Source: Thermoanaerobaculia bacterium
Lineage (GTDB): Bacteria > Acidobacteriota > Thermoanaerobaculia > Multivoradales > JAHEKO01
Assembly (NCBI GenBank): GCA_049664225.1
Contig: JBATEX010000075.1
Coordinates: 7,414 to 71,413, forward strand
Direction of reading: 5' to 3'
DNA: 64,000 nucleotides
Positions 8,089-64,000 of the stretch are shown piece by piece. The notes under the pieces were generated by a model. The model was not told the DNA's origin. It made no database searches and saw only the letters and a list, made by a program, of their open reading frames with translations. Numbering within the stretch: the stretch's first letter is position 1; the number at the start of each line of letters is the position of its first letter. A program made the translations under genes and the position numbers.

Positions 8089-9974
8089 CTCGAGACCGCG
8101 GGAGGAATCGTGAAACCGGATTCCTCGAGTCGACGAACGATGTATTCCCGAGCTGCGGAGTCCGGTGGGGGAACCAGGGCCTTATCCCCGATCGCTGAGT
8201 GCCAGCTCACAGTGCCCGATTGGATGACCCCCGTGACCAAATCGAGCTTCTTCCAGTAGGGACCAAGGACGAGTCCGACCTCCCGGACGCCGAAGATCGG
8301 TGGTCCGGGGTGGTCAATCCTTGACAACCCCCCTCCTGAGATGCTGATCCCCGTGTAAGAAAAGGAAGCAAGGCTGAGGATTGGGAGGTTCCCCCCAACG
8401 GTCAGGGCTTTCTCCAGTGAGTCTCTGGAGGACCTCTGCGAGAAGAGTGACTGTTGCGTCATCCAGTTCGGTCTCTCAACGCCCATGTACTCCAGTATCG
8501 TAGCCGGCACCTGGGCCAGGGACACATTGCGTTCGATCCTCTTCCACGGACGCTCCTCGGGCAGGTAGACGATTAGAGGAACCCGGTAAACACTGTCCCA
8601 CGCCCGGGAATGATCCGAGGCAATGATCAGAATCGAGTCTTCCAACTCACCTAACGCCTCGAGTTGCTCGACGAAGGTCTGAATCTGTTCGTCTGCATCG
8701 CGGATCGAATCCAAATAGCGGGCGAGGCCCTCTCGAGACTTTGGGTCGGGCTCAGGCATCGCATTCGGGTCGAACCAACTGCGAGCTCCCGCCCAGCTGC
8801 AGCAGTGAGTGCCCATGAGATGAATCTGCATGAAGTAGGGACCTTCTTGTGCACGGGCAAAGTCCAGCGCGTCTTCCAGCCTCTTGGTGTCGACAACCCG
8901 GCTCAGACCCACACTTTCTTTGACCAGCAGATAGTGGTTGATGATGGGTTTGATACCGCAGATGTGCAGAAGCCTCTCCAGCAGTCGATTGACCATACGG
9001 GTCGAGAATTGGATTTCAGCACTGAAAAGGTAAGCCAACCGACCCACGAGAGAGCCCGGAGTGGGAGTGAACAACCGTCGCTCATTCGCGATATCGAACG
9101 AGCTGATCATGTTCAGATCGCCGGCATCCGCGTAGTAGCGAATGGAGCTCTGGAATCCTCGATATCCCAGTCGTTGAAGAATCGAGGGCAGGTGCAGTGC
9201 CGCATGCTTCTTGGGAAAGATCTGAGGCGGAAAGCCCACCTGCAGCTCTGAAGGAAGGGAGCCGCTCAACATGGATGACAGAGTGCCGGTGGTCTTTCCG
9301 GAAGTGGGAAACGCATTGTCGAACACTACGGCCCCAGTGGCAAAGCTCTCCAGGAACGGAGTTGTCGGTAAGGGAAACCCATACACCGACATGAGCCTTG
9401 CTTCGACTCCGTCCGTAGACAGCAGAATGATATTGGGACGCCGAATACCTTCTCCAACAGCGTTCACTTCTGGCTCCGCCCGGGAAAAGTCGGTTGTGAC
9501 GACCTCGGCACCCAAAGCGACCAGAGCGCCGATCAACACCATCGCTGGTAGGAGCCGCAGCGGATGGCCCTGTCTCAAACCGTCCCACCGCGATACGGCA
9601 GACCTGACCCACCTCAGGCAGCGGAAGAAGAAGAAAGCAAACAGCGCCAGGTACAGGAACCTGACGATCTTGCCCGACGTGATTACTCCCACACCCAGGA
9701 CCGTGTACAGAAAGTTGTCGGCTAGCAGAAACAGGCTCGACGCGAGAAAAAAGGCTGGCACAAAGCAGCGCACCTGGAGTTTGGGAACGCGGACATCTAC
9801 CACTCCAAGGAGCAGGATCAGGGGTACCACTGCAACGCTGAGTGCGACAGGTGGAATCACGAGAGTACCCACCATCTCGACTGCAGAGAAGGAAGCCATA
9901 AAGGAGGCCTTCGTGGCAAAGAACAACCACTCCAACCCCAGGTAGAAGACGGAAATGAGAAGCTGAACAGCCAT
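8085..9974 (-). CDS. membrane-anchored sulfatase-family (alkaline-phosphatase superfamily) transferase
   Basis: ORF 8085..10262 would overlap the asnB start, so I chose internal ATG 9974 (MAVQLLISVFYLGLEW). It has about 5 N-terminal TMs. These are followed by NIILLSTDGVEARLMSVYGF...TSGKTTGTLSSMLSG and IIASDHS, a pattern like LTA-synthase or phosphoethanolamine/phosphoglycerol transferases. Confidence 0.65.
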   Translation of the reverse strand: MAVQLLISVFYLGLEWLFFATKASFMASFSAVEMVGTLVIPPVALSVAVVPLILLLGVVDVRVPKLQVRCFVPAFFLASSLFLLADNFLYTVLGVGVITSGKIVRFLYLALFAFFFFRCLRWVRSAVSRWDGLRQGHPLRLLPAMVLIGALVALGAEVVTTDFSRAEPEVNAVGEGIRRPNIILLSTDGVEARLMSVYGFPLPTTPFLESFATGAVVFDNAFPTSGKTTGTLSSMLSGSLPSELQVGFPPQIFPKKHAALHLPSILQRLGYRGFQSSIRYYADAGDLNMISSFDIANERRLFTPTPGSLVGRLAYLFSAEIQFSTRMVNRLLERLLHICGIKPIINHYLLVKESVGLSRVVDTKRLEDALDFARAQEGPYFMQIHLMGTHCCSWAGARSWFDPNAMPEPDPKSREGLARYLDSIRDADEQIQTFVEQLEALGELEDSILIIASDHSRAWDSVYRVPLIVYLPEERPWKRIERNVSLAQVPATILEYMGVERPNWMTQQSLFSQRSSRDSLEKALTVGGNLPILSLASFSYTGISISGGGLSRIDHPGPPIFGVREVGLVLGPYWKKLDLVTGVIQSGTVSWHSAIGDKALVPPPDSAAREYIVRRLEESGFTIPPAVSR

Positions 9975-10139
9975 GACGGCCTGCAAAGAGGCTGTTCCGG
10001 CGTCGAGTCGCCCTGATGCAGACCGTTCTTCAGGCAAATCCATTGGTGATCTTCGACAGCAGCCCAGAACTCCTTGCTGCGGCCTCCGACACCGCAGGCA
10101 AGCTTTGAGACCTGATCCCAACTCTACTAGAGTGGCTTG

Positions 10140-11888
10140 ATGTGCGGCATCGTAGGCATCGTAGGTAGCACCCCCGAGCCCGAGATCATCGAGCGGATGA
10201 CCCGGCGCCTGACCCACAGGGGTCCAGACCACCAGGAGGTCTGGCGAGCTTCCCGGGCGCATCTAGGACATACCCGACTGGCCATTCTCGACCTGTCGAC
10301 GGCCGGCAACCAACCGATGACCTACGGTGACTACACGATCACCTACAACGGAGAGATCTACAACTTCAGTGAGTTGCGGCGTCGACTGGAAGGTCCGCTT
10401 CACTCCGCCGGAGATACCGAGGTTCTCCTGCACCTCTACGCCCGCGACGGAGCGCGCTGCCTCGATCAGCTTCAGGGGATGTTCTCCTTCGCCGTTTGGG
10501 ATTCACGGCGCCAGCGTCTATTCGCTGCTCGCGACCGTCTTGGAATCAAGCCTTTCTTCTATCGCCAGTTCCCGGGTGGCCTGGCGTTCTCATCTGAGAT
10601 CAAGGCCCTCTTGGAGCTCGGCCAGCCTCCCATCGACCAGACGGCGCTGCGCGACTACCTCACCTACAAGTACATTCCCGAACCCAAGACGGTCTACTCC
10701 GGGATTCGCAGATTGCCGCCGGGCCACAACCTGGCGTGGGATGGCAGCCTCCGGATCCAACGGTACTGGAGCCCCTCGACTGAGACGGTCATCACAGATT
10801 TCTCAGAAGCGGTTCCGCGCCTCGACGATCTGCTTGGAGAGGTCGTCCCCGAACACACCATTTCAGACGTTCCGGTAGCGGTCTTCTTGAGCGGAGGCAT
10901 CGACTCCACGACCGTCGTAGCCCAGCTGGACCGACCCACCACCGTGACCCTTGCAATGGACATCAAGCGCCGGGATGAGGCTCCTGTGGCTCGACTCATC
11001 GCCAATCACTTCGGCACGCTGCACCATGAAGAACAGGCCTCCGCTGTCGACCTGAACGAGGCTCTGGACATCATGCCGGGTGTTTTTGACGAGCCCTTCG
11101 GCGATTCCGGTGCCTGGGCCACCTACCTCGTGTCACGCCTCGCTCGCCGTTACGCGGTCGTGGCTCTCACCGGCGAAGGGGGGGACGAGCTCTTCTGTGG
11201 GTATCACTGGTACAGCAAGTGGTTGACCGACCGCTCGACCTTCGTCAACAGGGCGATGGCGTCCCTCCTGCCGCCTCTGTCCCGGGGCGCTAGATCGGCT
11301 CAGCGTCGGACCGCCACCGGCTTGGAGCGCTATGCAGCCTTCGCGGGACCTTTTACATCACAGCAGCGCAACGCACTGCTTGGGCCCGCTCTCGAAGTCG
11401 CTGATTACGATGACCTGTGGCACTACCGCCGTTTCTGGCGGGAGGATCTAGAGCCGCTGAAAAGGATGCAATGGGCAGACCTCCACACCTACCTGCCGGG
11501 CGACCTGCTCGCCAAGGTCGATCTGTCCAGCATGGCTCACTCCCTGGAGGTTCGGCCTCCTCTTCTCGACCACCGGCTGGTGGAGTTCGCTCTCTCGCTG
11601 GATACCCGCCTGCTGCGGGACGTCGAGGGCAATCGAGGCAAGCTCATCGTGAGACGGTTGATGGACGACCGGATACCGCCAGGGATCTTCGATCGACCCA
11701 AGAGAGGCTTCAATCTACCGGTCGCGGACTGGGTGCGGCACCAACCCGAGCTCCTCACCTCGGCACTCGATCGCCTCGCCGAGCGCGCGATCATCCGGCG
11801 TCCACGGACCTTCAGCTTCACCAACGAGCAGACCTGGACGCTGCTGTTTCTCGACCGCTGGCTCGAGCAGAGCAACGCTCGGTTTTGA
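10140..11888 (+). CDS. asnB: asparagine synthetase (glutamine-hydrolysing)
   Basis: ATG-TGC at 10140 gives the obligatory N-terminal Cys (MCGIVGIVG). Other motifs are LAILDLS, GEIYNFSELR, and the PP-loop FLSGGIDST. Confidence 0.9.
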   Translation: MCGIVGIVGSTPEPEIIERMTRRLTHRGPDHQEVWRASRAHLGHTRLAILDLSTAGNQPMTYGDYTITYNGEIYNFSELRRRLEGPLHSAGDTEVLLHLYARDGARCLDQLQGMFSFAVWDSRRQRLFAARDRLGIKPFFYRQFPGGLAFSSEIKALLELGQPPIDQTALRDYLTYKYIPEPKTVYSGIRRLPPGHNLAWDGSLRIQRYWSPSTETVITDFSEAVPRLDDLLGEVVPEHTISDVPVAVFLSGGIDSTTVVAQLDRPTTVTLAMDIKRRDEAPVARLIANHFGTLHHEEQASAVDLNEALDIMPGVFDEPFGDSGAWATYLVSRLARRYAVVALTGEGGDELFCGYHWYSKWLTDRSTFVNRAMASLLPPLSRGARSAQRRTATGLERYAAFAGPFTSQQRNALLGPALEVADYDDLWHYRRFWREDLEPLKRMQWADLHTYLPGDLLAKVDLSSMAHSLEVRPPLLDHRLVEFALSLDTRLLRDVEGNRGKLIVRRLMDDRIPPGIFDRPKRGFNLPVADWVRHQPELLTSALDRLAERAIIRRPRTFSFTNEQTWTLLFLDRWLEQSNARF

Positions 11889-53657: not shown

Positions 53658-53898
53658 CGTGTCCTCCAGTACTCCAGGTTCGGTTGATCCTGTGACCTCG
53701 TGTCCGCTGTCGACGCGAGTCTGAATAGCGGAAATCTGGGGCGGACTCTACTTCCGCAGGCCTTCTGGCGCAAGCGGCCGGCATCTCTGCCGGCCGACCC
53801 ACGGTTGGAGCACAATCCCACGAGTACGCAACCATCATGCTTGGCAGCGCGATTTCCCACTATCGGATCACCGGCCAGCTCGGCTCGGCCGGCTGGAG

Positions 53899-54129
53899 GT
53901 GGCTCCGCTCTTCATTGAGCCGGGCAGTCCCTGGGAGAACGGCTACGTCGAATCCTTCAACGCGCGGCTCCGGGACGAGTTTCTCGATGGCGAGATCTTC
54001 GACACGCTCAAGGAAGTACAGGTGCTTACCGAACGCTGGCGGTGGCAGTACAGCCACGTCCGGCCCCACCAGTCGCTCGGCTGGCCGCTAGCGGCCAGCC
54101 GGGAGCACATGCATCCGGCCGTTTACTAA
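53899..54129 (+). mobile_element. rve-type (IS3-like) transposase C-terminal remnant
   Basis: FIEPGSPWENGYVESFNARLRDEFLDGEIFDTLKEVQVLTERWRWQYSHVRPHQSLG. It is preceded at 53837-53895 by a ~19-codon kinase-like stub (MLGSAISHYRITGQLGSAG). Confidence 0.7.
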
Positions 54130-54555
54130 CATTCAGACTGGTACAAACAACGGAGGCCGACCAGTTATTCATTGTTCTGATGCGAGTGAGGCTCCATCCA
54201 ATTGACATTGTCCAGGCCAAATCCACGTCTACAAACCGCGGAGGTAACGCCGAAGACGATTGCTTGCTCTCCAGGGGTCAGGCCGGTCACCCGGACTTGT
54301 TCGTCTAGAAGGTGGATCTGGGGTTGGACCGTGGATGCTGCGGCCGTCTACAGGCCCATCAGCCCAGCGAGGAAGAGGATCACCGTCGTTCTCATCGAGG
54401 CCCTCCTTTCAAGAGACGATCGCTATCAGCTCTGCCTTCACTCGAGGACTCGTGACTAGGCTGCGTCCTGTCAGAGGCCCGAGCAACCTGTCGATTTCCG
54501 GATCACCAACGAGGATAGGGGCTAGTGAAATGGAGTCAAGTCCCCAATTGGGGTG

Positions 54556-54834
54556 TCACTCGATCAGGGGACACAGCCCGCAGAGCGTTAAAAGCTCACA
54601 GCAGAGCCCGTCGGACCGGAGCACCAGAAGTGCGTGAATGACAACCCTGCAGCGGGAGGAGACGTCGAGTTTGCGGAAGATCCGGCGGGTGTAGGTGCGG
54701 ACCGTGTGCTCCGAGATGCCGCGATCGCGGAGAAGCCCCTGGACAATTTGAATTTCCCTTGCGGAGAGTCCCAACAACCGAGCCAGGTCGGACCACACTG
54801 CATCGCTTCTTGTCTGCCCTCTCGTGATTGCCAT
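54556..54834 (-). CDS. small LuxR/GerE-type HTH protein (atypically short HTH)
   Basis: The start is ATG 54834, with a GGAGGGG RBS. LSAREIQIVQGLLRDRGISEHTVRTYTRRIFRKLDV resembles the GerE domain but lacks several residues of the usual first-helix/turn segment. Confidence 0.5.
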   Translation of the reverse strand: MAITRGQTRSDAVWSDLARLLGLSAREIQIVQGLLRDRGISEHTVRTYTRRIFRKLDVSSRCRVVIHALLVLRSDGLCCELLTLCGLCPLIE

Positions 54835-55050
54835 CAACCCCTCCTGGATGTCCCCTGATGGAGTGGCTTTGACCGACAAAGCAAGGGCACATCCAGATTC
54901 AGAGGCTGCACTGCACGTCTATTGGTCTATCGAGGAGAGCGAAACGTTACAGTCGCCAGAAATCGATCCACGTTGCGGGTATCGGGCCACGGGTGAGGCT
55001 ATCCCCCGCTCACGCCCTGGGGTTGGGGCGGAAGTCTCTTCCATCCGGCC

Positions 55051-55105
55051 TCTGGGATCCTGAGGTCTTTGGATCTGGGGTCCTGGGGTCCTGGGGTCCT
55101 GGGTA
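55051..55105. repeat. octanucleotide tandem repeat (TGGGGTCC, 3 perfect plus about 4 degenerate units)
   Basis: ctgggatc ctgaggtc tttggatc tggggtcc tggggtcc tggggtcc tgggtag. This is the reverse complement of the GGACCCCA motif seen at 17131 and 27351. Confidence 0.9.
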
Positions 55106-55120
55106 GACGAATACCCTGTA

Positions 55121-55141
55121 GGGGCGGCCCTTGCGGCCGCC
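55121..55141. repeat. GC-rich hairpin (8-bp stem GGGCGGCC/GGCCGCCC, 5-nt loop)
   Basis: gggcggcc cttgc ggccgccc, read directly. It is REP-like. Confidence 0.85.
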
Positions 55142-55222
55142 CGCGGAAGGGGGCAGGGCATCCGGCCGGAGGACTCGCATTCTGAGGGCAACAAGATTCG
55201 AGGCTCAGGTCAAGGACACCCA

Positions 55223-55310
55223 AGAGGTCGGTTCGAGGGGTAGGAGACCGGGCGGTTCTTGCAGCGGAAGGGAGGACAGCCCCCTGGTCTCCTACCCCTC
55301 GGACCGACCT
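55223..55310. repeat. long hairpin: 26-nt inverted repeat (1 mismatch) with 36-nt loop
   Basis: gaggtcggttcgaggggtaggagacc at 55223-55248 pairs with ggtctcctacccctcggaccgacctc at 55285-55310. Confidence 0.9.
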
Positions 55311-55619
55311 CCGATAGACAACCTGACTGGGAAGATGTATCAACGACCGACGGGTGCACCGGGAAGCTCTACTCGCAGGCTACTACTACCCTCACCGGTG
55401 CCCGAGGTTCGTTCGGGTGGCTCGACTGTGGGGCGCCTCGTCGAGCGCAGCGCAAGAGCCATCGAAGACTACGCGAGATCCGGCGCGAAGACGTGACGAG
55501 GTGGCGGCCCCCCCATTGCAGTCAGAGTAGCCGACGCCGTCCGCCTGCGAGCCGCCCGGACGGACCTCCAATCGACAGACGACTCAAGGCCTCAGCTGCC
55601 CATATACTGGCAGTCAGTC

Positions 55620-55983
55620 ATGACCAAGTGTAGATTGCGAGCCGATGGAACCCCGTCTCCGCGGGGCCGTCGAACGCCCAAGCCACCACCGACAGAAGAG
55701 CAGTTGGCCGAACTGGAGCGGCTCACCGACCAGTTTCCTGAGTCACTCAGAGCCTTTCGCGATCGGGGCCTGCTGAACCCGGTTCGGAGGTTTCGTCTCG
55801 AAGAGGCCATCCGCCATCGATCCCGGACCCTAGTGCCCGTCCTGCACGGCGTTCACGACCCGCACAATCAGGCGGCGGTCATGCGTAGTTGCGAGGCCCT
55901 GGGCCTGCAGGAGTTCCACTTCATTCAGAGCGTGGCCGGTGGCTCTCTGCACGCCAACCCACGAATTACGCAGAACGCCCAGG
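55620..55983 (+). pseudogene. SpoU/TrmH-family RNA 2'-O-methyltransferase, 3'-truncated
   Basis: RTLVPVLHGVHDPHNQAAVMRSCEALGLQEFHFI is the SpoU motif-1 region. The rest of the domain is replaced by RAYT-derived sequence from about 55984. Confidence 0.6.
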
Positions 55984-56147
55984 GAAGAGGTAGTAGCCAC
56001 TTCTGGAGCAGAAATCGGCCCTGCATTGTCCGACACGTCACTTCGACCAGGGCGCTGCCTTGGGGGATGAACCGCAGTCTCCTTGCCATACCTTAGACGT
56101 CGCAATGCCCTCCCGCGTTCTTTCAGAATCGGATGGCACCTCTTCGG
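55984..56147 (-). mobile_element. RAYT mini-derivative D (REP-like end, first 28 codons, upstream REP)
   Basis: ATG at 56089 encodes [28 protein letters not shown]. The left end is gaagaggtagtagcca and the right end is ggatggcacctcttcgg. Confidence 0.75.
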
Positions 56148-56150
56148 AAA

Positions 56151-56429
56151 CTAGCGGTCCTGTCTTTGCGCACCATCCGAAACGGCGTCAACAACAGCGA
56201 GTATTCCAAATGCTAGTACCGTTGACAAAAACATGATTGGCGATCCATTGAGCTTCCCATCAGCAAACGCGCCAATGGTAGGCAGAAGTGTCCAAACTAG
56301 GGACACCATACCAAGAGACAGAAGCACTCTATATGTCCACGGTTTTGCACGGTTGAAGAATGGTAGGACCAGTATCACTGCTAGGCTCAGAATCACCGAA
56401 CTCTCAAGCCACCAGACAAAAAAGAACAC
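56151..56429 (-). CDS. hypothetical 3-TM membrane protein (lower G+C)
   Basis: 92 aa and strongly hydrophobic. I recognise no domain. Confidence 0.4.
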   Translation of the reverse strand: MFFFVWWLESSVILSLAVILVLPFFNRAKPWTYRVLLSLGMVSLVWTLLPTIGAFADGKLNGSPIMFLSTVLAFGILAVVDAVSDGAQRQDR

Positions 56430-56620
56430 TGCTTACCTCCCTTCAAGTCTCCTGTCTGCTTTGCCAATTGGAGGTAGGGGTGCCAGCCACTTCTGACTTG
56501 CACCCGTCGATAGGCGAAGATCAGCAAGCCAGCCACTAGGACAGTCACCAAGGGCCCGAGGAGGCGAACTGCTAGTAACCGTCGACGTGAGCCTTGGGCG
56601 GGGTTCTCTGGCATCTCCAT
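56393..56620 (-). CDS. hypothetical small membrane protein (possibly the frameshifted 5' part of the next ORF)
   Basis: 75 aa with one TM (LLGPLVTVLVAGLLIFAY). It overlaps 56151..56429 by 37 nt. Confidence 0.3.
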   Translation of the reverse strand: MEMPENPAQGSRRRLLAVRLLGPLVTVLVAGLLIFAYRRVQVRSGWHPYLQLAKQTGDLKGGKQCSFLSGGLRVR

Positions 56621-56725
56621 GATTCAGACTTCCTTCTCAAGGCAGCTATGTATAAGCGCCCACTAGCTTTGATTCGAGTCATGAATCGCCTGTCCATCCG
56701 GGGCCGCTCGTGGGTCGCGGCACCC

Positions 56726-57319
56726 CTAACGACTACCTTCGGTTAGCGTTCTGAGGTATTCCACGACGGCGCTGTCAGACCAATCCGCGGCGCCGGTATG
56801 GCGAAACACGATGTTACCCGCGCTGTCCACGATCCACGTCGTTGGTATTGGTGACGGGAATGAGGTCCCCTCTGGAGAACTCGCCACCCTCACCACAGGG
56901 AGCGTCAGCTCTGTCTTCTCCACGAACTTCTTCAAGGTGGCAGCTGGCTCTTCCGAAAGCAACATGAAGGCAATCTCGTCGTCGAAGTTCTCTGCCAACC
57001 GCTCCAACTCTGGCAACTCCAGGATGCAAGGGCGGCACCATGTGGCCCAGAAGTTCACCACCAGAGGTTTACCCCGGAATTCGGTCAACCGCACCCGTAC
57101 GCCATCAGGAGAATGGAGATGCCAAGAATAATCAAAGGGGTCCGAAAGAGTTGGTACCGGCGGCGCTGGAAGCCCGGATTCTGAACCACCCTCAGGCCAC
57201 TCGGCCATCTGCGTCACTGCCCAAAAGCCGATTCCGACCGCAATGAGGCCCCCTGCCAGTACTGTGAGCAGACAACCTGCTCCGGCACCGAGAAGAAAAC
57301 TACGGGTCGTGGGTCTCAT
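56726..57319 (-). CDS. membrane-anchored TlpA/ResA-like thiol:disulfide oxidoreductase
   Basis: The start is ATG 57319. It has an N-terminal TM, then LVVNFWATWCRPCILELPEL (thioredoxin WCxxC). Confidence 0.8.
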   Translation of the reverse strand: MRPTTRSFLLGAGAGCLLTVLAGGLIAVGIGFWAVTQMAEWPEGGSESGLPAPPVPTLSDPFDYSWHLHSPDGVRVRLTEFRGKPLVVNFWATWCRPCILELPELERLAENFDDEIAFMLLSEEPAATLKKFVEKTELTLPVVRVASSPEGTSFPSPIPTTWIVDSAGNIVFRHTGAADWSDSAVVEYLRTLTEGSR

Positions 57320-57443
57320 TTCGTACCAGCGGTGATCCGGTCCGTCAGCTTCCCGCTCGCCAGAATAGAAGTGTAGGTTTGAACATCTCTTTCCTGCCAA
57401 CGCCCGAGGTGAGCCTGCATCACCTCACTCTGTACGAATTGGA

Positions 57444-57770
57444 TCATCCCTTCCACCAAACACCCAGCTCTCCAAGTACCCAGATTACGAAGAGAAGCGA
57501 TGCCAGAGGGTTTAGGACCTTTGCCAGAAGCACGAGTCGGTCTATCTGAGAATCGCCGAGCTGCCTATAGTCCCCGGAACGGAGGAATCTCCGAACATCA
57601 TTCTGTTTCTGAATTGTTGTCTTGAAGAATCTTGGTTCACCGAAGGCCTGCCAGATTTCGTGATGATTGAGCCGTAGGCGTCGCAAGAGCAAATACCACA
57701 CAGTGAGAAGGGTCACGACAAGCGCCACGAGTGCTGACCAAGTGGTTGCGAAGAAGGAAGTCCACGTCAC
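57444..57770 (-). CDS. two-TM paralog family member 3b (putative immunity protein)
   Basis: 108 aa, built as TM1-RLRLNHHEIWQAFGEPRFF...YRQLGDSQIDRLV-TM2. It shares the W..(L/F)G.P..F and L.D..(L/I) motifs with five other ORFs in the locus. Confidence 0.6.
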   Translation of the reverse strand: MTWTSFFATTWSALVALVVTLLTVWYLLLRRLRLNHHEIWQAFGEPRFFKTTIQKQNDVRRFLRSGDYRQLGDSQIDRLVLLAKVLNPLASLLFVIWVLGELGVWWKG

Positions 57771-57824
57771 AGCCAGATACCTATGTGATTCATTCCGGTA
57801 AACGCCGACAGAGGTTTTCTCGAG

Positions 57825-58118
57825 TCACCTCTGAACCAAAACCAAGAAGATGAGTGCCAGCCAAAGCGCCGCCGCAAAGCTGATGATAGTCAGTTTCCAG
57901 ATGGTTCCAAGGCGATTCAACCGCGGGTCTTTGAGGTCTTTGTACTGACCTCGTAGCAGAAACCTGTTGGCATCTGTCGTTTGATTTAGAAAGGCATGCG
58001 GCCTTCCCAACTTATCCCACAACTCCCGATAGTGGACTTTCAGGTAACTGTAGAACCGATGCGCACACCCGGCACTCAATAGCCCCATAAGAACTGTGGC
58101 CGCCACCAAGGCAAACAT
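57825..58118 (-). CDS. two-TM paralog family member 3a (putative immunity protein)
   Basis: ATG 58118 lies 14 nt after the stop of the toxin-tip remnant. The layout is TM1-YLKVHYRELWDKLGRPHAF...YKDLKDPRLNRL-TM2. Confidence 0.6.
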   Translation of the reverse strand: MFALVAATVLMGLLSAGCAHRFYSYLKVHYRELWDKLGRPHAFLNQTTDANRFLLRGQYKDLKDPRLNRLGTIWKLTIISFAAALWLALIFLVLVQR

Positions 58119-58132
58119 CGCGAGATCATCTC

Positions 58133-58363
58133 CTACCTGCAATCTCCACCTCCCAAAGTGACCTGCCGCCCAGCGACTATGTATGCTGCCGCTCCTGCGC
58201 CCACCCCAAGACCCGTATTGTCGTGAAGCTCCCCATCCGCGAAGACCGTCCCGAGCTGTCCTCCCAGGGGTAAGCCCCAAAACGACAGAATGCCATAGCT
58301 AAGGGCATTCGCATAGCCGCCGACCGCGGCTCGGACTTGACCTCCATCCGGAAATCTCGGGCC
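58133..58363 (-). pseudogene. remnant of a third glycine-rich Rhs-type toxin tip
   Basis: ...GGYANALSYGILSFWGLPLGGQLGTVFADGELHDNTGLGVGAGAAAYIVAGRQVTLGGGDCR ends like the main tip (GYILFGGQKTFGGGDCG). The upstream part is replaced by RAYT mini-element E. Confidence 0.55.
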
Positions 58364-58364
58364 C

Positions 58365-58765
58365 GGAATAGGTGCCTGCCGAACCTGGCTCCCTACCGGC
58401 GACCCCAGAACTTCTCCCTCCACCCATGCAGTCGACCGGCCTCTCGTGCCAGGTTCGAGTTGAGGAAGTTCATGAACCGGGCGAGTCGAGGAGCGTCGTC
58501 GACACTCAGTAGAAGGTGGTAATGATTCGAGAGGAAGACGAACGCATGAAGCTCGACCGGGTAGAGCCTTTGGGCTCGGGCGAGGACCCCGATGATGATG
58601 GACTTCAAGTCATCGGAGGGAGTGAGCAGAAATCGGCCCTGCATTGTCCGACACGTCACTTCGACCAGGGCGCCGCCTTCGGGGATGTACCGCAGTCTCC
58701 GTGCCATGCACTAGAGGTCGCGCTCCACTCCCACGTTCTTGCAGAATCGGATGGCACCTCGTCGG
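58365..58765 (-). mobile_element. RAYT mini-derivative E (both REP-like ends, first 104 codons; internal deletion)
   Basis: ggaataggtgcctgccgaacctggctccc at 58365-58393 corresponds to 36502-36530. It is joined directly to codon 104 of the RAYT (ORF 58393..58707). The right end is ggatggcacctcgtcgg. Confidence 0.8.
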
Positions 58766-58852
58766 AACCAGAGGATGATCCCGCCGCGCCTGAATTGAAG
58801 CTCCGTGACATTTCTCTCAGGGGGGCAAGATACTGTTTCCTTCAATCTGGCA

Positions 58853-59164
58853 TCATCCTACAAGCCCGAGAACTAACAACCCGATCAAGAGCAACAGGGA
58901 TAGGAACTCGCAGGTCCGCTCAAGAAGAACAAGACACCTGAGCCTCTGAGTTCTCATGGATTCCACAGGTGTCCTCCAAAGAAACCGCTGGACTCGGCCC
59001 TCAATGCTAACCGAGTTGTTCCAGAGAAGCGAAGGACACCCTAATGTCTCCCAGGTCTGCCTGAAGTTCCGCTTGAGGAGTAAGAATAAGCTTGTACGAA
59101 GCAGTCCCGATACCAGAAACAGAAGAGCCGCGGAAGTACCTAGCGCCAGCTGCAAGGTTCGCAT
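58853..59164 (-). CDS. two-TM paralog family member 2b (putative immunity protein)
   Basis: 103 aa, built as TM1-LLKRNFRQTWETLGCPSLLW...MRTQRLRCLV-TM2. Confidence 0.6.
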   Translation of the reverse strand: MRTLQLALGTSAALLFLVSGLLRTSLFLLLKRNFRQTWETLGCPSLLWNNSVSIEGRVQRFLWRTPVESMRTQRLRCLVLLERTCEFLSLLLLIGLLVLGLVG

Positions 59165-59172
59165 TTCGGGTC

Positions 59173-59487
59173 CTAGAACGCGACAAAATAGCTGAAGACA
59201 AGCAGCAGCACGAACAGCGTGGCCTCCAAGAGCCTCTTCTTAACCACAAGGCTGTCAAGCTGTTCGTCATTCAGTTTCTTAAATGATCCGGACCAGACGA
59301 ACTTGATCCTCTGGAGATTGGACCGAAGAGTGCTCGATGGGAACAACGAAGGTGCTCCCAATTCGTTCCATGTCTGGGGATATTTCGAGCGGAGGAGACG
59401 ATAAACTTGCTGGGTGACCAGGAAGTACGGCACAACCAGAACCCACATCAATCCCCAAATCACAGCGAGGCCAGTTCGTTCAGTCAT
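59173..59487 (-). CDS. two-TM paralog family member 2a (putative immunity protein)
   Basis: ATG 59487 has GAGGTG 4 nt upstream and lies 8 nt after the orphan toxin stop. The layout is TM1-RLLRSKYPQTWNELGAPSLF...FKKLNDEQLDSLV-TM2. Confidence 0.6.
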   Translation of the reverse strand: MTERTGLAVIWGLMWVLVVPYFLVTQQVYRLLRSKYPQTWNELGAPSLFPSSTLRSNLQRIKFVWSGSFKKLNDEQLDSLVVKKRLLEATLFVLLLVFSYFVAF

Positions 59488-59495
59488 CGTGCACC

Positions 59496-61081
59496 TCAAT
59501 CGCAAAGATCACTGACTACGAAGGTCCAGCTCGGTGAGAATGTGAGAGCAAACCCTCCTCCGATACCGACGCCGATGCCTCCGACCAACGTCGAGCCACC
59601 CGTGGACAGAGTATAGGAAAAGTATGTCGTACGACCCGCACCCAGACCAAGAACTCCAGAGAAAGTGAGGCCCAAGCCCTCTGCTCCGCCCGTGCCCAAC
59701 CCCACGGGGTACACACCACCTGCAGCACCATACGTTGCTATTGGTCCTCCAAACGTCGCTTCGGCTCGGGCTGGAGTGCTGACCAAGGACGCATAACCTC
59801 CCCAGAATTCTCCGCCTTCGACCAAGACGGCACCGGTCCAATTGTAGATAGCGCTGCAGAAGACCTCACTTACCATCTCCAGGACTTCCGGGTCATCCTC
59901 ACCGCCCCCTTCTGTGCCCGACTCGTTGCTATCTCCTGCTCCCGACCCCCCTTCGCCTGGCGTCTCCGGTGTCGGTTCTACAACCTCCGGATCGACTCTT
60001 CCGAAGATCCCCCCAAAAACGGGTCCGCGGCGTTCAGCTCCCCGTTTCATCGATAGTCCTCCCGGACCAAACCCAAAGTTCGCTGCAGAATTGTAACTCC
60101 AGTAGGCAAACCTCCAAAAAGCATCGAGCACCAACCGATACTCCCGAAAGGTCTCCAGATCCCCTTCTTCCTTGTTCGGACGCAAGCCAAAGGGATCCAC
60201 TAGGTTGATCGGATTTCCCATCACATAGGCGTAGCGGTTGAGACTCTGCGGTGCTGCAGGACTCCCTCTCAATGGGTCGACCCTGCCGAAGCGGCCGAGG
60301 AAGGGGCTATAGTAGCGGGCATGCATGTAGTCGAGATCATCCAGCGTGCCGGTGTAGCCCAAGTCTCGTTCGTGACCGGTGTACTTGAGGGGGAACTGGT
60401 TCTGGCCTGAATCAGTGACCTCTTCGCCATAAGGCAGATAGTCGTGCTGGTAGAGGAGATTGCCGGCCGAGTCGGTGACCCGTCTCGGGGTGCCGAGATG
60501 GTCGAGGTGATAGTGGCGCACCTCGCCGTGGTCAACCGGTTCGTGGCCAGGGAGACCGAGATCACTCGGTTCTGGGCGGGGCCGCCCGGGGCGGAGGCGG
60601 CGACGGCGGTCAAGTTGCCGAAGGGGTCGTAGGTGTAGTCCTCGGTGTAGCCCGAGGCCGTGCCGGAGACCAGGCGGCTAACCTCGTCGTAGACGTAGGT
60701 CTCGCTGCCGATCTCGTGAATGTTGCCGGAGCCGTCGTAGGTGAAGGGTCCCCAGTCCCACAGGGATCCGCAGCTGTCCTCCGCAGAGAGGCTGTAGGTG
60801 CGGGCGATGCCACTCGGGTCGATCTCCTGGAGGTCGGAGACGCCGTTGAGGTGCGGAATCTCGCTCCACAAGCGATTCGGGTGGTAGGCGAAGTTGTCCG
60901 TGAAGCCCTCGACGCGCTTGAGCCACCCTTTGGAGAAGGCGTACTCGAGGGTCCGGTTCGGCTCATCCTGCGGACAGTCCGCGTGGAGACAGTCGGGATA
61001 GGTGATCCGGGCAGTCGGCCCCAGCAGCCTACCCGCTACTGAACTGAGCGCCTGACCTGCAGCAATATTGTGAACAGTGCC
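59496..61081 (-). pseudogene. orphan rhs module: YD-repeat core fragment (no start, ~0.33-kb internal deletion with frameshift) plus complete alternative toxin tip
   Basis: The frame opens at 61081, directly after the stop of 61082..61528. It has YD repeats (YTYDPFGNL) and a frame change near 60525. The core end is RYYSPFLGRFGRVDP...NPINLVDPFGL, followed by a 228-aa glycine-rich tip ending SDLCD. Confidence 0.75.
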
Positions 61082-61528
61082 TCACGAAGAGGATGAGTTG
61101 CTCCGCCAACTAGGCTCCTCCGTCTCGTTCTTTTCCCGAGCAGCCGCGAACTCGGCCACGAGCTGACCTACTGTTGAGGGTAGTTCGCGGCCCTCATTAG
61201 CTCCAGAAGCTACCCTGAGTTCAAGGAGCTCGTCATTCAGATCGGACCAGGCAACGCTGAACTCAGCGAGATACCCGAACCGCTTAGAGAGAGCGTTCAG
61301 CGATTGCTCCGGAGCGAGCTTCTCCTGAGGTATTCTGAGCGTCTTCGCCACACGATTTCTTTCTCTCAGCACCGCATCCGCGGGAGCCGAGTAGCACTCA
61401 GGGAAGGGTTTGAGGAACTCCGCGTCAGACAAGCTCTCGAGCTGTTTGGCTCGATACCGGCGAAAGAGAATGCCCACACCCACCGCCACCACTCCGAAGA
61501 CTGAGATTAGATAATTCTGAGTGTCCAT
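61082..61528 (-). CDS. hypothetical single-TM protein
   Basis: 148 aa with an N-terminal TM (LISVFGVVAVGVGILF) and an acidic C-terminus. I recognise no domain. Confidence 0.45.
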   Translation of the reverse strand: MDTQNYLISVFGVVAVGVGILFRRYRAKQLESLSDAEFLKPFPECYSAPADAVLRERNRVAKTLRIPQEKLAPEQSLNALSKRFGYLAEFSVAWSDLNDELLELRVASGANEGRELPSTVGQLVAEFAAAREKNETEEPSWRSNSSSS

Positions 61529-61631
61529 GGTGCGTCAACCTCAGAATGCACAATATGCCAGAACGCCGTAGTCCCAAATGGCCCCCCGAACATTTTGGGC
61601 GTCGCCACCCACGACACGCCCCTGCTGCGAC

Positions 61632-61955
61632 CTACTGGTGCCCCAAAATCCAGGCCACATAGTAGATAAACAGTCCCCACAGCACCAACGTGAGGATCCC
61701 TTCTATCCTGACCATCCAGTTAAGTCTTTGGTCCTGCAACTCACCTATCCGACCGCTTATGACGAATTTGTAGAAAGCTAGTTGATTGCGAATCGAAGTG
61801 CGAAACACGGATGGAGCGCCTAGGTCCTCCCAATGTTGATGATGGTAGATCTCGAGCCGACGGCACAAGAAATACCGCAAGACAATTGCAAATGCTAGGA
61901 GCGAAACAAAAACACCACCGAGAGCTTGGTACAACATCTGCGCACCCGTTGCCAC
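61632..61955 (-). CDS. two-TM paralog family member 1b (putative immunity protein)
   Basis: 107 aa. Its GTG start shares 1 nt with the TAG of member 1a. The layout is TM1-RRLEIYHHQHWEDLGAPSVF...GELQDQRLNWMV-TM2. Confidence 0.6.
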   Translation of the reverse strand: MATGAQMLYQALGGVFVSLLAFAIVLRYFLCRRLEIYHHQHWEDLGAPSVFRTSIRNQLAFYKFVISGRIGELQDQRLNWMVRIEGILTLVLWGLFIYYVAWILGHQ

Positions 61956-62275
61956 TAGTCAAGCCAGCGCAACTTAGCCAACACCAGAATTGCGAAGATT
62001 GACGAGATCAGCAAGAAGACCTTGATCTGATTCTTATACTTCCCGACGAGCCGATCGAGATGCTCATCACCCAGGGATCGGAATTCATTCGACCGAATGA
62101 AAGTGCCGTAACTGCGAGATGAGTTCCAGAAGAGCCCCGGGGACCCGAGTGACCTCCACTTCTCATGATGATTCTGCCTCAGATACTTCAGAAGCCAATA
62201 TGATCGGACAAAGGCGTATACAAGAGCAGCCGCACTCACCCATAAAAGAACCCAGGCCAGGAATTCGTGTGTCAC
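61955..62275 (-). CDS. two-TM paralog family member 1a (putative immunity protein)
   Basis: 106 aa. Its GTG start overlaps the rhs stop (GTGA). The layout is TM1-YLRQNHHEKWRSLGSPGLFW...FRSLGDEHLDRLV-TM2. Confidence 0.6.
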   Translation of the reverse strand: MTHEFLAWVLLWVSAAALVYAFVRSYWLLKYLRQNHHEKWRSLGSPGLFWNSSRSYGTFIRSNEFRSLGDEHLDRLVGKYKNQIKVFLLISSIFAILVLAKLRWLD

Positions 62276-64000
62276 CCGCAGTCACCCCCTCCGAAGGTCT
62301 TCTGGCCGCCAAACAGAATGTAGCCTGACAGGCCACCCCCCACAACCCACCCGCCTCGGAGCGTATCGCCGCCTGAATGTGTCACACCTTCTATAGCATA
62401 GCCCGGAAGAAGCGGCACGATGATAACTCCGCCAGCGCGAACTTGGAACCCGTCTTCGGGAGCCGGCCCTAACTGCCAGGACAAGAATCCGTCGGAGGGA
62501 GCCGAAAGGGAGCTTTCCCCTGCGATGCGACCTGCTATCCCGAGTACGAACCCCACTGCACCAAACAATGTCAAGCGGTTGTAATCACCTGCCTCAGCCG
62601 AGAGTTGGCCCCCCACTGGATATACAGGGACTTGGCTAGTCCCGGCGAATGATATTCGAATCTGACTGCAATCCTGAGCTGCTTCTCCTTCTCCTGCGCC
62701 AACCTCCGTGTTCCCGGTCCCCCCCTCACCTCCCGCCCCTCCCTCACCAGGCTTCTCCGGTGTCGGTTCTACAACCACCCGCTCGGCCAAGATGATCGAA
62801 CTCGGATCATGCCCCGCCTCTCTCTCGGCGAGTGCGGCTTCGAGCGGGTCACCACCGCCGCCGCCAAACACCTGTAGGAAGAGCCAGCCCCAGTACCACA
62901 TGTCGTGGTATACGCCATACTCAAGGAACGTGCTCTTCGACTCTATGTAGAATCCGAATCCACCCGATCTCGGACCCAATCCAGTGGGATCAGTCAGGTT
63001 GATCGGATTTCCCATCACATAGGCGTAGCGGTTGAGACTCTGCGGTGCTGCAGGACTCCCTCTCAATGGGTCGACCCTGCCGAAGCGAGCCAGGAAGGGG
63101 CTGTAGTAGCGCGCATGCATGTAGTCGAGATCATCCAGCGTGCCGGTGTAGCCCGAGTCCCGTTCGTGGCCGGTGTATTTGAGGGGAAACTGGTTCTGGC
63201 CTGAATCGGTGACCTCTTCGCCATAAGGCAGATAGTCGTGCTGGTAGAGGAGATTGCCGGCCGAGTCGGTGACCCGTCTCGGGGTGCCGAGATGGTCCAG
63301 GTGGTAGTGACGGACCTCGCCTCCCGGGTGCACCGAGGAGACGAGACGTCCATTGCCGTAGATCATGTCCCGCTTCCAGCGCCACTCGTCGTTGCCCAGG
63401 CCGGAGCTGACCTCGTACTGACGGAGCACCTTGCCTGACAAGTCGCGTAGAGAAACTGTCTCCTCGAGTGCCGACATGCCTCCCGGCTCGTGGATCGTCC
63501 AGAGCCGCTCGCCACCGGCCGTGTAGAGATGGGTCCAGCTGAGGGAGCCGGCTTCCTGCCGAGTCAAGCGACTCAAGGCATCGTAGGTGTAGGTCGTGCC
63601 GTTCCAATCGGTCATGTTGCCGGCGGCGTCGTAGCTTGCTGTGAGCAGCCGATTCGTGGCCGGGGAGACCATGATCGCGCGCAACTGAACCATGCCGCCC
63701 GGGGTACTGGCTTCCACCCCGGTCAGGTTGCCGAATGGGTCGTAGGTGTAGTTCTCAGAATAGCCCGAAGCTGTGCCGGAGGTCAGGCGGCCGACTTCGT
63801 CGTAGAGGTAGCTCTCACCAGCGATCCCGCTGATGTTACCTGAGCCGTCGTAGGCGTAGGGCCCCCAGTTCCATAGCGACCCACCACTGTCTTCGGCAGA
63901 GAGGCTGTAGGTGCGCGGAACACCACTCGGATCCACATCCTGGACATCGGAGACGCCGTTGAGATGCGGAATCTCGCTGAATAGCCGGTTCGGGTGGTAG
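62272..64000 (-). CDS. Rhs/YD-repeat polymorphic toxin, 3' part (N-terminus beyond window end)
   Basis: The frame stays open upstream of the listed GTG 63936 to the window edge (...YHPNRLFSEIPHLNGVSDVQD). It has YD repeats (YTYDPFGNL, YDAAGNM, YTYDALSRL). The core end is RYYSPFLARFGRVDP...NRYAYVMGNPINLTDPTGL, followed by a 234-aa glycine-rich tip. Confidence 0.85.
   Translation of the reverse strand, partial: YHPNRLFSEIPHLNGVSDVQDVDPSGVPRTYSLSAEDSGGSLWNWGPYAYDGSGNISGIAGESYLYDEVGRLTSGTASGYSENYTYDPFGNLTGVEASTPGGMVQLRAIMVSPATNRLLTASYDAAGNMTDWNGTTYTYDALSRLTRQEAGSLSWTHLYTAGGERLWTIHEPGGMSALEETVSLRDLSGKVLRQYEVSSGLGNDEWRWKRDMIYGNGRLVSSVHPGGEVRHYHLDHLGTPRRVTDSAGNLLYQHDYLPYGEEVTDSGQNQFPLKYTGHERDSGYTGTLDDLDYMHARYYSPFLARFGRVDPLRGSPAAPQSLNRYAYVMGNPINLTDPTGLGPRSGGFGFYIESKSTFLEYGVYHDMWYWGWLFLQVFGGGGGDPLEAALAEREAGHDPSSIILAERVVVEPTPEKPGEGGAGGEGGTGNTEVGAGEGEAAQDCSQIRISFAGTSQVPVYPVGGQLSAEAGDYNRLTLFGAVGFVLGIAGRIAGESSLSAPSDGFLSWQLGPAPEDGFQVRAGGVIIVPLLPGYAIEGVTHSGGDTLRGGWVVGGGLSGYILFGGQKTFGGGDCG

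Follow-up and report, generated by a model that had tools for sequence, protein, structure and literature searches.

Putative membrane immunity proteins, distantly related to UspB, in tandem pairs behind the glycine-rich toxin tips of an acidobacterial Rhs array

The Rhs protein Tse5 (RhsP1) of Pseudomonas aeruginosa encloses a C-terminal toxin that forms pores and carries no enzymatic signature, and it is countered by the two-TM immunity protein Tsi5 (PMC9637101); Tsi5 is small, sits in the inner membrane and is predicted to have two TM segments, and its gene lies directly 3′ of the toxin gene (PMC9637101; PMC12744356). In Staphylococcus aureus, two membrane proteins, ExiC and ExiD, are encoded with the membrane-depolarising, glycine-rich T7SS toxin EsxX, which contains a glycine zipper. 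Both are required for protection and neither protects alone, and AlphaFold predicts that they form a heterodimer; orphan copies are also present in antitoxin islands, and homologs have been reported only in Staphylococcaceae (PMC12744356). Likewise, the CDI ionophores of E. coli are polymorphic toxins that act on membranes and contain a glycine-zipper element, and the CdiI proteins that guard against them are membrane proteins, ~30% identical within a group and active only against the cognate toxin (PMC11630599).

Here we consider a locus in a 64,000-nucleotide stretch of DNA (the window) from a Thermoanaerobaculia-like acidobacterium, in which Rhs proteins enclose C-terminal regions that, as in Tse5, lack an enzymatic signature. 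The likeness to Tse5/Tsi5, to ExiC/ExiD and to the CDI ionophores is one of description, and each comparison has its limits. Tse5 and the CDI ionophores each have a single immunity gene, whereas two genes follow every tip in the window; ExiC and ExiD are polytopic and are not presented as paralogs, whereas those of the window are paralogous two-TM proteins; and EsxX is an LXG/T7SS substrate and the CDI ionophores are CdiA-delivered, predicted five-helix bundles, whereas the window toxins are carried by Rhs proteins. The features of the locus are as follows, with the start codons of the six small ORFs (a1 to b3) uncertain by several codons.

62272..64000, minus strand: 3′ part of Rhs1, a full-length Rhs gene whose ORF runs past the window end, with its translation in frame
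62977-62991, minus strand: end of the Rhs1 core, DPTGL
62272-62976, minus strand: CT1, variable C-terminal region of Rhs1, 22.6% Gly
about 62275-62670, minus strand: tip1, glycine-rich toxin domain with two flanking Cys
61955-62275, minus strand: a1, two-TM family member, 106 aa
61632-61955, minus strand: b1, two-TM family member, 107 aa
61082..61528, minus strand: ORF148, 148 aa with an N-terminal TM segment, part of inserted cassette 1
59496..61060, minus strand: displaced (orphan) Rhs C-terminal module with tip2, read by three-frame translation, Pfam RHS match
about 60269-61060, minus strand: frameshifted core fragment of the tip2 module, preceding ORF 59496-60521
59496-60521, minus strand: tip2 ORF, core end DPFGL at 60183-60197
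59496-60182, minus strand: CT2, 21.1% Gly
59173-59487, minus strand: a2, two-TM family member, 104 aa
58853-59164, minus strand: b2, two-TM family member, 103 aa
58393..58707, minus strand: truncated IS200-like (Y1) transposase fragment, which truncates tip3 at its 5′ side, also read by three-frame translation
58133-58423, minus strand: tip3 remnant, a third glycine-rich tip, 22.9% Gly, C-terminal end GGGDCR
57825-58118, minus strand: a3, two-TM family member, 97 aa, perhaps 105 aa with a start further upstream
57444-57770, minus strand: b3, two-TM family member, 108 aa

All six ORFs lie on the minus strand at the ends given for them in the initial annotation, and the junctions that it listed are reproduced: the GTG start of a1 overlaps the Rhs stop codon (GTGA), b1 overlaps a1 by 1 nt, and gaps of 8, 8, 14 and 54 nt separate tip2 from a2, a2 from b2, the tip3 remnant from a3, and a3 from b3. 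Database gene calls place the start of b1 6 codons further downstream and that of a3 8 codons further upstream, and a2 has an alternative TTG upstream at 59505. The by-eye impression that these genes are AT-rich was right, with the GC of the three pairs at 0.502, 0.518 and 0.514 as compared with 0.612 in window positions 1-55000, 0.62-0.63 in the Rhs cores and 0.58-0.625 in the tips; the low values may in part be a mere consequence of hydrophobic amino-acid content. Directly 3′ of b3 lies a gene for a membrane-anchored, TlpA-like redoxin.

The six proteins are paralogs with a common two-TM layout, as had been proposed. Scores by phmmer are significant for all pairs (18-46 bits), at identities of just 23-34%, six alignment columns are common to all (M1, L32, W40, G44, P46 and F59), and a family HMM run on the 64-kb window matches these six ORFs and no others. 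Kyte-Doolittle profiles (19-residue window > 1.5) show two hydrophobic segments per protein, separated by a loop of 50-64 residues containing 8-12 K/R, and identity in the loop is 32% versus 16-19% in the TM segments. Two long TM helices flank a positively charged, conserved loop, which by the positive-inside rule is predicted to be cytoplasmic, with both termini periplasmic.

The tips that precede these genes are glycine-rich. The only two Cys of CT1 are residues 103 and 233 of 234, and those of CT2 are residues 109 and 227 of 228; the tip3 remnant matches the end of tip1 with 36% identity over 75 columns (BLASTP, E 2e-7). Rhs1 matches Pfam RHS_repeat and RHS and, over residues 27-320, Rhs and TccC shells of known structure, and the first 113 residues of the tip2 ORF are nearly identical to Rhs1 residues 208-320 and divergent beyond. 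The tips themselves have no Pfam match, no sequence match to any PDB chain (searched for tip1 in particular) and no homologs by word-indexed search, and AlphaFold predicts their structure poorly (pLDDT 35.8). The three pairs of the earlier claim that three toxin tips are each followed by two genes are indeed present, but no more than about 75-96 codons of tip3 remain, beside a transposase fragment (Pfam Y1_Tnp, E 2e-4, profile positions 24-93 of 121). We read the locus as a probable Rhs array comprising a full-length Rhs gene with tip1, a displaced tip2 module and a decayed tip3 module, in which every tip would have its own immunity cassette. ORF148, which has no match in Pfam, PADLOC or PHROGs, may be a further immunity-like gene; a C-terminus that resembles its own by eye is encoded just 5′ of the fused family member P0023 in locus L155.

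Comparison with related loci shows that a tip and its pair behave as one cassette in the window's lineage, inherited together and exchanged together between strains. In L158, L159 and L163 a full-length Rhs gene continues directly into tip2-a2-b2, and L158, which is 99.7% identical to window 60527-56000, lacks segment 60527-62970; this segment, containing tip1, a1, b1, ORF148 and a core fragment, is therefore an added cassette in the window. The a2-b2 pair is also found in L160 in addition to those three loci, and in L164 a mobile element breaks b2 after about 17 codons and leaves a2 intact. The a3-b3 pair occurs without any tip in L001/L002, where the orthologs share 62/95 residues with a3 (dN/dS 0.23) and 78/104 with b3 (dN/dS 0.22), so this orphan pair is under purifying selection. 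The three window pairs are paralogous modules and do not count as three independent occurrences.

Beyond the window, sequence searches place the six genes in a large family, hitherto without a name, whose proteins are about 105 residues long. A profile search gives 2259 representatives (clusters at 50% identity) with E<=1e-3, of which 338 reach E<=1e-10, and none of Pfam, NCBIfam, PADLOC and PHROGs has a curated model for the family. The family appears to be a distant relative of UspB (PF10625, NCBIfam NF003435), with a similarity that is weak but consistent and in register. UspB, at 111 aa, is equal in size to the family and has the same succession of TM, charged loop and TM; E. coli UspB aligns with the family HMM end to end and in register at 16.5 bits, a score reached by 0/1000 segment shuffles, and hhalign of the family against the single E. 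coli sequence gives a probability of 17% and an E of 0.0015. PF10625 is matched by 14 of 66 relatives (best E 8.5e-6), as compared with at most 2 for any other Pfam family, and a precomputed match exists for relative P0163, but none of the six window proteins matches it, even at E<=1. The W-x2-L-G-x-P motif that is the hallmark of the family is absent from E. coli UspB, and uspB adjoins uspA and no toxin, whereas family members often adjoin toxin tips; a link between UspB and polymorphic toxins was not found in the literature searched.

It is informative to examine what precedes the relatives elsewhere. A search with a degenerate DNA pattern yielded 120 metagenome loci, a family member being present in 107 of them, and 42 upstream neighbours on the same strand and within 150 nt were interpretable. 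About 15 of these are Rhs/YD proteins with glycine-rich C-terminal tips: 10 match the window Rhs core end (phmmer, E 4e-45 to 7e-5) and the remaining 5 or so comprise YD proteins rich in glycine, truncated tips and orphan tips. The C-terminal 100 residues of such proteins are 16-35% Gly, and the family gene often overlaps the toxin's stop codon. When these tips were compared with those of the window, only tip2 scored above its own shuffles, and homology between the two sets is not statistically demonstrable by this shuffle test. One locus (L070) copies the window architecture, with an Rhs tip, two family members overlapping by 4 nt and an orphan Rhs fragment. Most tip-linked relatives are single, however, with a lone member behind the tip in at least 9. 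Many relatives lie away from toxins, following tldD (L008 and L049), recR (L085 and L088), a gene whose sequence reads as a probable alpha/beta-hydrolase (L037, L039, L041 and L133) or an aldehyde dehydrogenase (L063), or residing in toxin-less islands such as L002, where four members are found among other small genes beside an integrase.

Because the family so often stands behind Rhs tips in environmental bacteria, the six proteins are most likely antidotes to membrane-acting toxins, and we hold with considerable confidence that they function in immunity. The initial annotation had named a family widespread away from toxin genes as evidence against immunity, and the survey bears this out in part; since members away from toxins would fit either orphan immunity or a broader UspB-like role, the immunity reading is weakened but not overturned. 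That the six are general, UspB-like membrane stress proteins, by chance in a variable island beside Rhs remnants, would account for the housekeeping neighbours and for UspB being the sole Pfam family repeatedly matched by relatives. We nevertheless consider it improbable, given that about a third of sampled members stand directly behind Rhs/YD tips on unrelated contigs, that the window genes travel with their tip, and that the low identity among the six is what is expected of polymorphic immunity genes. More remote still is the idea that they are membrane-anchored helpers of the producer's own toxin in export, folding or disulfide formation; the two Cys bracketing each toxin domain and the redoxin gene next to b3 would suit such a role, but orphan pairs are kept without a toxin gene and diversification this extreme suits toxin-specific recognition and not a general helper. 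Known Rhs/T6SS helpers, moreover, tend to be soluble proteins whose genes precede that of the toxin.

Whether immunity proteins of this kind work in twos is a separate question, and the pair as a special unit is only partly supported. Two genes per toxin are less unusual than had been assumed, ExiC/ExiD being a published membrane pair (PMC12744356). The proposal that the conserved pair forms a hetero-oligomer draws on the exchange of intact cassettes, the selection on the orphan pair and the fused two-repeat proteins, which make up about 34 of the best 150 relatives in the profile search. The AlphaFold2 model of one of these, P0021 (pLDDT 90.9), has in each repeat a long helix, three short helices and a second long helix, and its pTM of 0.69 suggests contact between the repeats. 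Against a heterodimer, single genes are commoner behind tips and position-specific a and b subfamilies were not found: a-to-a likeness does not exceed a-to-b likeness (mean 27.3 vs 29.4 bits, phmmer), a1 and b1 are both closest to b3, and there is no clustering by position with the pairs of L070 or L110. These same observations would fit independent immunity proteins, either both protective and so redundant, or one cognate and the other a spare, retained or duplicated, that guards against a related toxin of neighbours, as would the accumulation of members in toxin-less arrays and the intact a2 beside a disrupted b2 in L164; one report describes several independent immunity proteins per toxin, as a rarity (PMC13392607). 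The recurrence of exactly two genes per tip, three times, with junctions of the translational-coupling type (GTGA, 1-nt overlap, 8 nt), the frequency of fused relatives, and the integrity of the pair across strains and as an orphan, with similar purifying selection on both genes, argue the other way. On balance we regard independent action as rather unlikely and joint action as a heterodimer as the better candidate, if one that falls somewhat short of even chances.

Taken together, these observations make it fairly likely that the locus is an Rhs array with per-tip cassettes of UspB-related membrane immunity proteins that are probably dimeric. These proteins would sit in the inner membrane and neutralise the glycine-rich, Cys-bracketed Rhs C-terminal domains, for which a membrane-acting role is somewhat favoured; the domains are probable pore-formers or depolarisers that work within the membrane or at its surface. 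The TM helices and short termini, which vary greatly, would determine specificity, with the conserved loop as a common scaffold. The functional unit would probably be a dimer, a homodimer where a tip has a single gene behind it and otherwise, with two genes or a fused two-repeat gene, a heterodimer or pseudo-dimer. Tse5/Tsi5 and the obligate pair ExiC/ExiD may be seen as precedents for the membrane-based immunity that we read here in an Rhs array.

Three modules lie toward the end of the window, each a glycine-rich C-terminal toxin tip followed by two genes for small proteins with two transmembrane (TM) segments. All six of these ORFs, on the minus strand, are present exactly as the initial annotation had listed them:

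62272–63936, minus strand: Rhs1, the 3′ part of a full-length Rhs gene, in frame on to the window end, with Pfam RHS_repeat and RHS matches; carries tip1
61955–62275, minus strand: a1
61632–61955, minus strand: b1
59496–60521, minus strand: second module, its last 113 core residues almost identical to those of the first and diverging after DPFGL; carries tip2
59173–59487, minus strand: a2
58853–59164, minus strand: b2
58133–58423, minus strand: tip3, a remnant homologous to the end of tip1 (E 2e-7) and truncated by an IS200-like transposase fragment
57825–58118, minus strand: a3
57444–57770, minus strand: b3

The junctions had likewise been read correctly: the GTG start of a1 and the TGA stop of the Rhs ORF before it overlap as GTGA, b1 and a1 share one base, and the other gaps are 8, 8, 14 and 54 nt, which places the first downstream gene −4 to +14 nt from its tip. 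That the six proteins form a single family, proposed earlier from a shared motif, is now statistically supported, with all 15 pairwise phmmer comparisons significant (18–46 bits) and a family HMM recovering the six ORFs, and no others, from the 64-kb window. Identity is 23–34% in a MAFFT alignment (given relative to a1), and the invariant columns are M1, L32, W40, G44, P46 and F59. In each protein a loop of 50–64 residues, with 8–12 K/R and 4–6 D/E, separates two hydrophobic segments; the termini are short and carry almost no charge. Because the loop is rich in K/R, the positive-inside rule predicts a cytoplasmic loop with both termini in the periplasm. The loop is also the better conserved part, at 32% identity among the six against only 16–19% in the TM segments. 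The GC content of the three pairs is 0.50–0.52, compared with 0.61 in the first 55 kb of the window, 0.62–0.63 in the Rhs cores and 0.58–0.625 in the tips; therefore an earlier by-eye impression that these genes are AT-richer than their flanks was right; the difference may be due in part to hydrophobic codon usage. A scan of 56500–63000 for promoters and terminators gave results at chance level.

The upstream genes display features of an Rhs toxin/immunity cassette array. Residues 27–320 of Rhs1 match solved Rhs and TccC shells, and this YD/Rhs repeat shell ends in the core motif PxxxxDPxGL, after which a variable C-terminal domain begins; the identity shared by Rhs1 and the orphan module ends directly behind DPxGL. 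A frameshifted core fragment lies upstream of the module at 59496–60521, which thus has the appearance of a classical displaced orphan tip. Further features of such arrays are present as well, namely small, highly diverged ORFs directly downstream of each tip, an orphan tip that keeps a piece of the core, and the replacement of tip plus immunity genes from strain to strain.

The tips themselves are 21–23% glycine. CT1 and CT2 (the variable C-terminal regions with tip1 and tip2) contain exactly two Cys each, bracketing the last 120–130 residues, and the truncated tip3 retains the C-terminal Cys only. Glycine-zipper-like motifs, (G/A/S)xxxGxxx(G/A/S/T), number 3 in CT1, 13 in CT2 and 5 in tip3, and maximum hydrophobicity is only moderate (1.2–1.7); alternating patterns in related tips could equally indicate beta strands. 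No Pfam domain was found in any tip, the 234-residue region after the DPTGL of Rhs1 has no match in Pfam or among PDB sequences, and a sequence search of tip1 against PDB chains returned only noise. A word-indexed protein search yielded no relatives of the tip1 C-terminal domain, and the AlphaFold2 model of the tip1 toxin domain was uninformative (pLDDT 35.8). Against an HMM of glycine-rich tips from metagenomes the window tips scored 6.2, 2.6 and 1.7 bits, none of them significant, and only tip2 scored above its own shuffles.

Several other genes share this island. Directly downstream of b3, at 56726–57400 on the minus strand, lies a gene for a TlpA-like membrane-anchored thiol:disulfide oxidoreductase (AhpC-TSA/Redoxin, E 1.7e-15), a curious neighbor given the two Cys that bracket each toxin domain. 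Between b1 and the orphan Rhs module, a 148-aa ORF (61082–61528, minus strand) has an N-terminal TM segment, belongs to the inserted cassette discussed below and has no Pfam, PADLOC or PHROGs match; a further immunity-like function is possible. Directly upstream of P0023, a fused family relative in locus L155, a similar C-terminus can be read, and L006 has a called gene of equal length (148 aa, 599–1045). Two IS200-like (Y1) transposase fragments, at 58393–58707 and 55925–56089, have nearly the same N-terminus, MARRLR(Y/F)IP, and BLAST through the related locus L158 suggests two copies of ~144 bp (58624–58767 and 56006–56149) that are ~90% identical and ~2.6 kb apart. These copies bracket the tip3 remnant, a3, b3, the redoxin gene and a small membrane-protein gene. 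A 92-aa hydrophobic ORF (56151–56429, minus strand), in a stretch of GC ~0.52 and with no Pfam match, encodes another small membrane protein, here at the island edge. The adjoining 53800–56100 holds gene fragments only (an rve_3 integrase core at 53899–54129, a GerE/LuxR HTH at 54556–54879 and a SpoU methylase at 55620–56096) and resembles the decayed remains of mobile elements at the border of the Rhs island.

The family to which the six proteins belong is large and has no model in the curated libraries that were searched: Pfam gave no meaningful match and PADLOC and PHROGs gave none for all six, and NCBIfam gave none for a1 and b3, the two scanned against it. A word-indexed search returned 14 close relatives, one of them named as coming from a Thermoanaerobaculia MAG, and the same kind of search with a 66-sequence family alignment returned only 11 proteins. 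In an exhaustive profile search, 2259 cluster representatives passed E≤1e-3, and 338 of them also E≤1e-10. Among the 150 best relatives, about 34 have two matched stretches and are fused two-repeat chains of 196–284 residues. A tblastn search of 72,556 plasmids with a typical member as query found no match.

Whether these proteins are immunity proteins, as their position had suggested, is best considered in light of where the family occurs elsewhere. A degenerate DNA pattern applied to metagenome contigs identified 120 loci, and in 107 of these a family member is encoded. With a simple gene caller of our own, we obtained a sample of 42 members that have a gene from outside the family, on the same strand, no more than 150 nt upstream. 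Ten of these 42 upstream proteins match the Rhs core end of the window (E 4e-45 to 7e-5) and end glycine-rich; their final 100 residues are 18–35% Gly, and in several a G-Y-x-F/W motif accompanies a Cys close to the C-terminus. About five further neighbors are YD-repeat proteins or truncated glycine-rich tips. Because an Rhs-type glycine-rich tip thus precedes roughly a third of the sample, in contigs very different in sequence, guilt by association argues strongly for a link between family and tips. This comparative genomics favors an immunity role, although the family is broader than toxin loci. Other members lie behind tldD, recR, a probable alpha/beta-hydrolase (read from sequence) or an aldehyde dehydrogenase, and in two unrelated contigs (L008, 2–931; L049, 1990–4118) fused members lie 14–25 nt downstream of what by eye is a TldD/PmbA-like C-terminus, a conserved non-toxin context for which the immunity model has no explanation. 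Further members occur in arrays of small membrane-protein and lipoprotein genes (L002, L155, and L156/L157, where the array adjoins a gene with a faint MORN_2 match). In L002, a related Thermoanaerobaculia-like contig, four family members at 7135–7491, 8466–8810 and 10001–10696 (also in L001, L005 and L006), two of them distant and two orthologs of a3 and b3, sit among such genes beside a phage-type integrase. No Rhs gene occurs in 20 kb, and the region looks like an orphan immunity island.

Two observations from these loci deserve separate mention. In several loci where a single member sits behind the Rhs tip, a small multi-TM, non-family ORF lies no more than a few hundred bases downstream of that member (L130, 2377–2697; L104, 903–1193; L101, 2790–3227), and could be an unrelated second membrane partner. 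In addition, L112 (1183–3372, minus strand) encodes a glycine-rich tip and short Rhs core end carried on a signal peptide and several repeats that by eye are fibronectin type III-like, without a long YD shell; the tip class may therefore have carriers of more than one kind.

The initial annotation had proposed that a conserved pair behind every tip could form a hetero-oligomeric membrane complex, a reading that is plausible but not proven. In its favor, fused two-repeat relatives are common, which is evidence for a two-subunit unit, and the AlphaFold2 model of one of them, P0021 (pLDDT 90.9, pTM 0.69), shows each repeat as a long helix, three short helices and a long helix, with a short inter-repeat link that fits two subunits in parallel orientation; Foldseek of this model against the PDB found no match (best E 2.1, TM at most 0.30). 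The metagenome locus L070 mirrors the window order, with a tip, two overlapping members and then an orphan Rhs fragment, and L110 has an orthologous pair. In L158, L159 and L163 a full-length Rhs runs directly into tip2-a2-b2 and window segment 60527–62970 is absent (L158 is 99.7% identical to window 60527–56000); this segment is therefore an extra cassette that brought tip1, a1, b1 and the 148-aa ORF together. Finally, a3 and b3 are kept in L001/L002 without an upstream tip, at ~75–77% nucleotide identity and with dN/dS of 0.23 and 0.22.

Against a heterodimer with specialized a and b subunits, neither a neighbor-joining tree nor pairwise scores contain a-versus-b clades: first genes score 27.3 bits on average against first genes and 29.4 bits against second genes by phmmer, b3 is the closest relative of both a1 and b1 among the six, and a and b of the window have no positional correspondence with the L070 or L110 pairs. 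At least nine tip-linked members have no second member downstream. Moreover, in the metagenome variant L164 (770–2514) b2 is interrupted after ~17 codons by foreign DNA, whose translated sequence reads as the C-terminus of a zinc-finger-like transposase and as a probable serine recombinase, and tip2 and a2 are intact, such that this locus reads as a natural b-less allele. Because the three window modules are paralogous, the pair behind every tip is also closer to one observation than to three.

Known systems offer likenesses of function, layout, arrangement or pattern. In the Rhs context, the closest functional analogue is Tse5, an Rhs-encapsulated pore former, with its two-TM immunity protein Tsi5 (PMC9637101); the window proteins share with Tsi5 both the two TM segments and the gene position directly after the Rhs toxin. 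In arrangement, the closest analogue of the window pair is ExiC/ExiD, a membrane-protein pair in which both partners must be produced for protection against the glycine-zipper toxin EsxX and which is also found as orphans in antitoxin islands (PMC12744356). A membrane pair is thus less unusual than was initially thought, and a joint need of the ExiC/ExiD type would fit the fused two-repeat relatives and the confidently predicted fused model. The divergence of the six proteins resembles the pattern in CDI ionophore immunity proteins, which are ~30% identical yet strictly cognate (PMC11630599).

A further relationship, to UspB, is probable but distant; the idea came from the layout, as UspB too is a TM–loop–TM protein of roughly 110 aa. 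The six proteins cannot be assigned to PF10625, as none matches it at E≤1 or reaches its gathering threshold of 28.6 bits. Among their relatives, 4 of 10 scanned individually match PF10625 in register (E 0.001–0.14, 12.6–19.3 bits), as do 14 of 66 at E≤0.1 (best E 8.5e-6), where every other family is matched by at most two; P0163 has a precomputed match. The family HMM aligns end-to-end with E. coli UspB (16.5 bits over HMM positions 4–103), and not one of 1000 segment-wise shuffles scored as high, but hhalign of the family against the single E. coli UspB sequence gives a probability of only 17%. A literature search found no paper linking UspB with polymorphic toxins. The role of this stress protein is regarded as still unclear.

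Taken together, we favor a model in which the six proteins would be inner-membrane immunity proteins against membrane-acting Rhs tips, their variable TM helices conferring toxin specificity, their conserved cytoplasmic loop serving as a scaffold and a dimer being the working unit. The membrane as the site of toxin action we infer only from the membrane location of the immunity proteins, the composition of the tips and the absence of an enzymatic signature. One can imagine a far broader scheme, which we consider unlikely, in which the whole UspB-like superfamily consists of membrane-embedded antidotes to glycine-rich membrane-inserting toxins, with the dimer (homodimer, gene pair or fused repeat) as the unit, members behind housekeeping genes and E. 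coli UspB being domesticated or orphan membrane-protecting immunity proteins, and the Cys-bracketed glycine-rich Rhs tips being a new, widespread class of membrane toxin.

Examples of membrane-acting Rhs toxins with membrane immunity proteins are so far few. What is new here is a very large unannotated immunity-like family that recurs next to glycine-rich Rhs tips of a likewise unannotated class, that comes in a series of single, paired and fused forms and that may be tied to UspB. The series makes the recognition of a membrane toxin by membrane immunity proteins testable, and UspB itself gains, through its weak link to the family, a suggested function that is concrete and testable. The locus points to a large immunity family, absent from the catalogues although soil and sediment metagenomes hold thousands of its sequence clusters, and to a class of glycine-rich Rhs tips that is just as uncatalogued.
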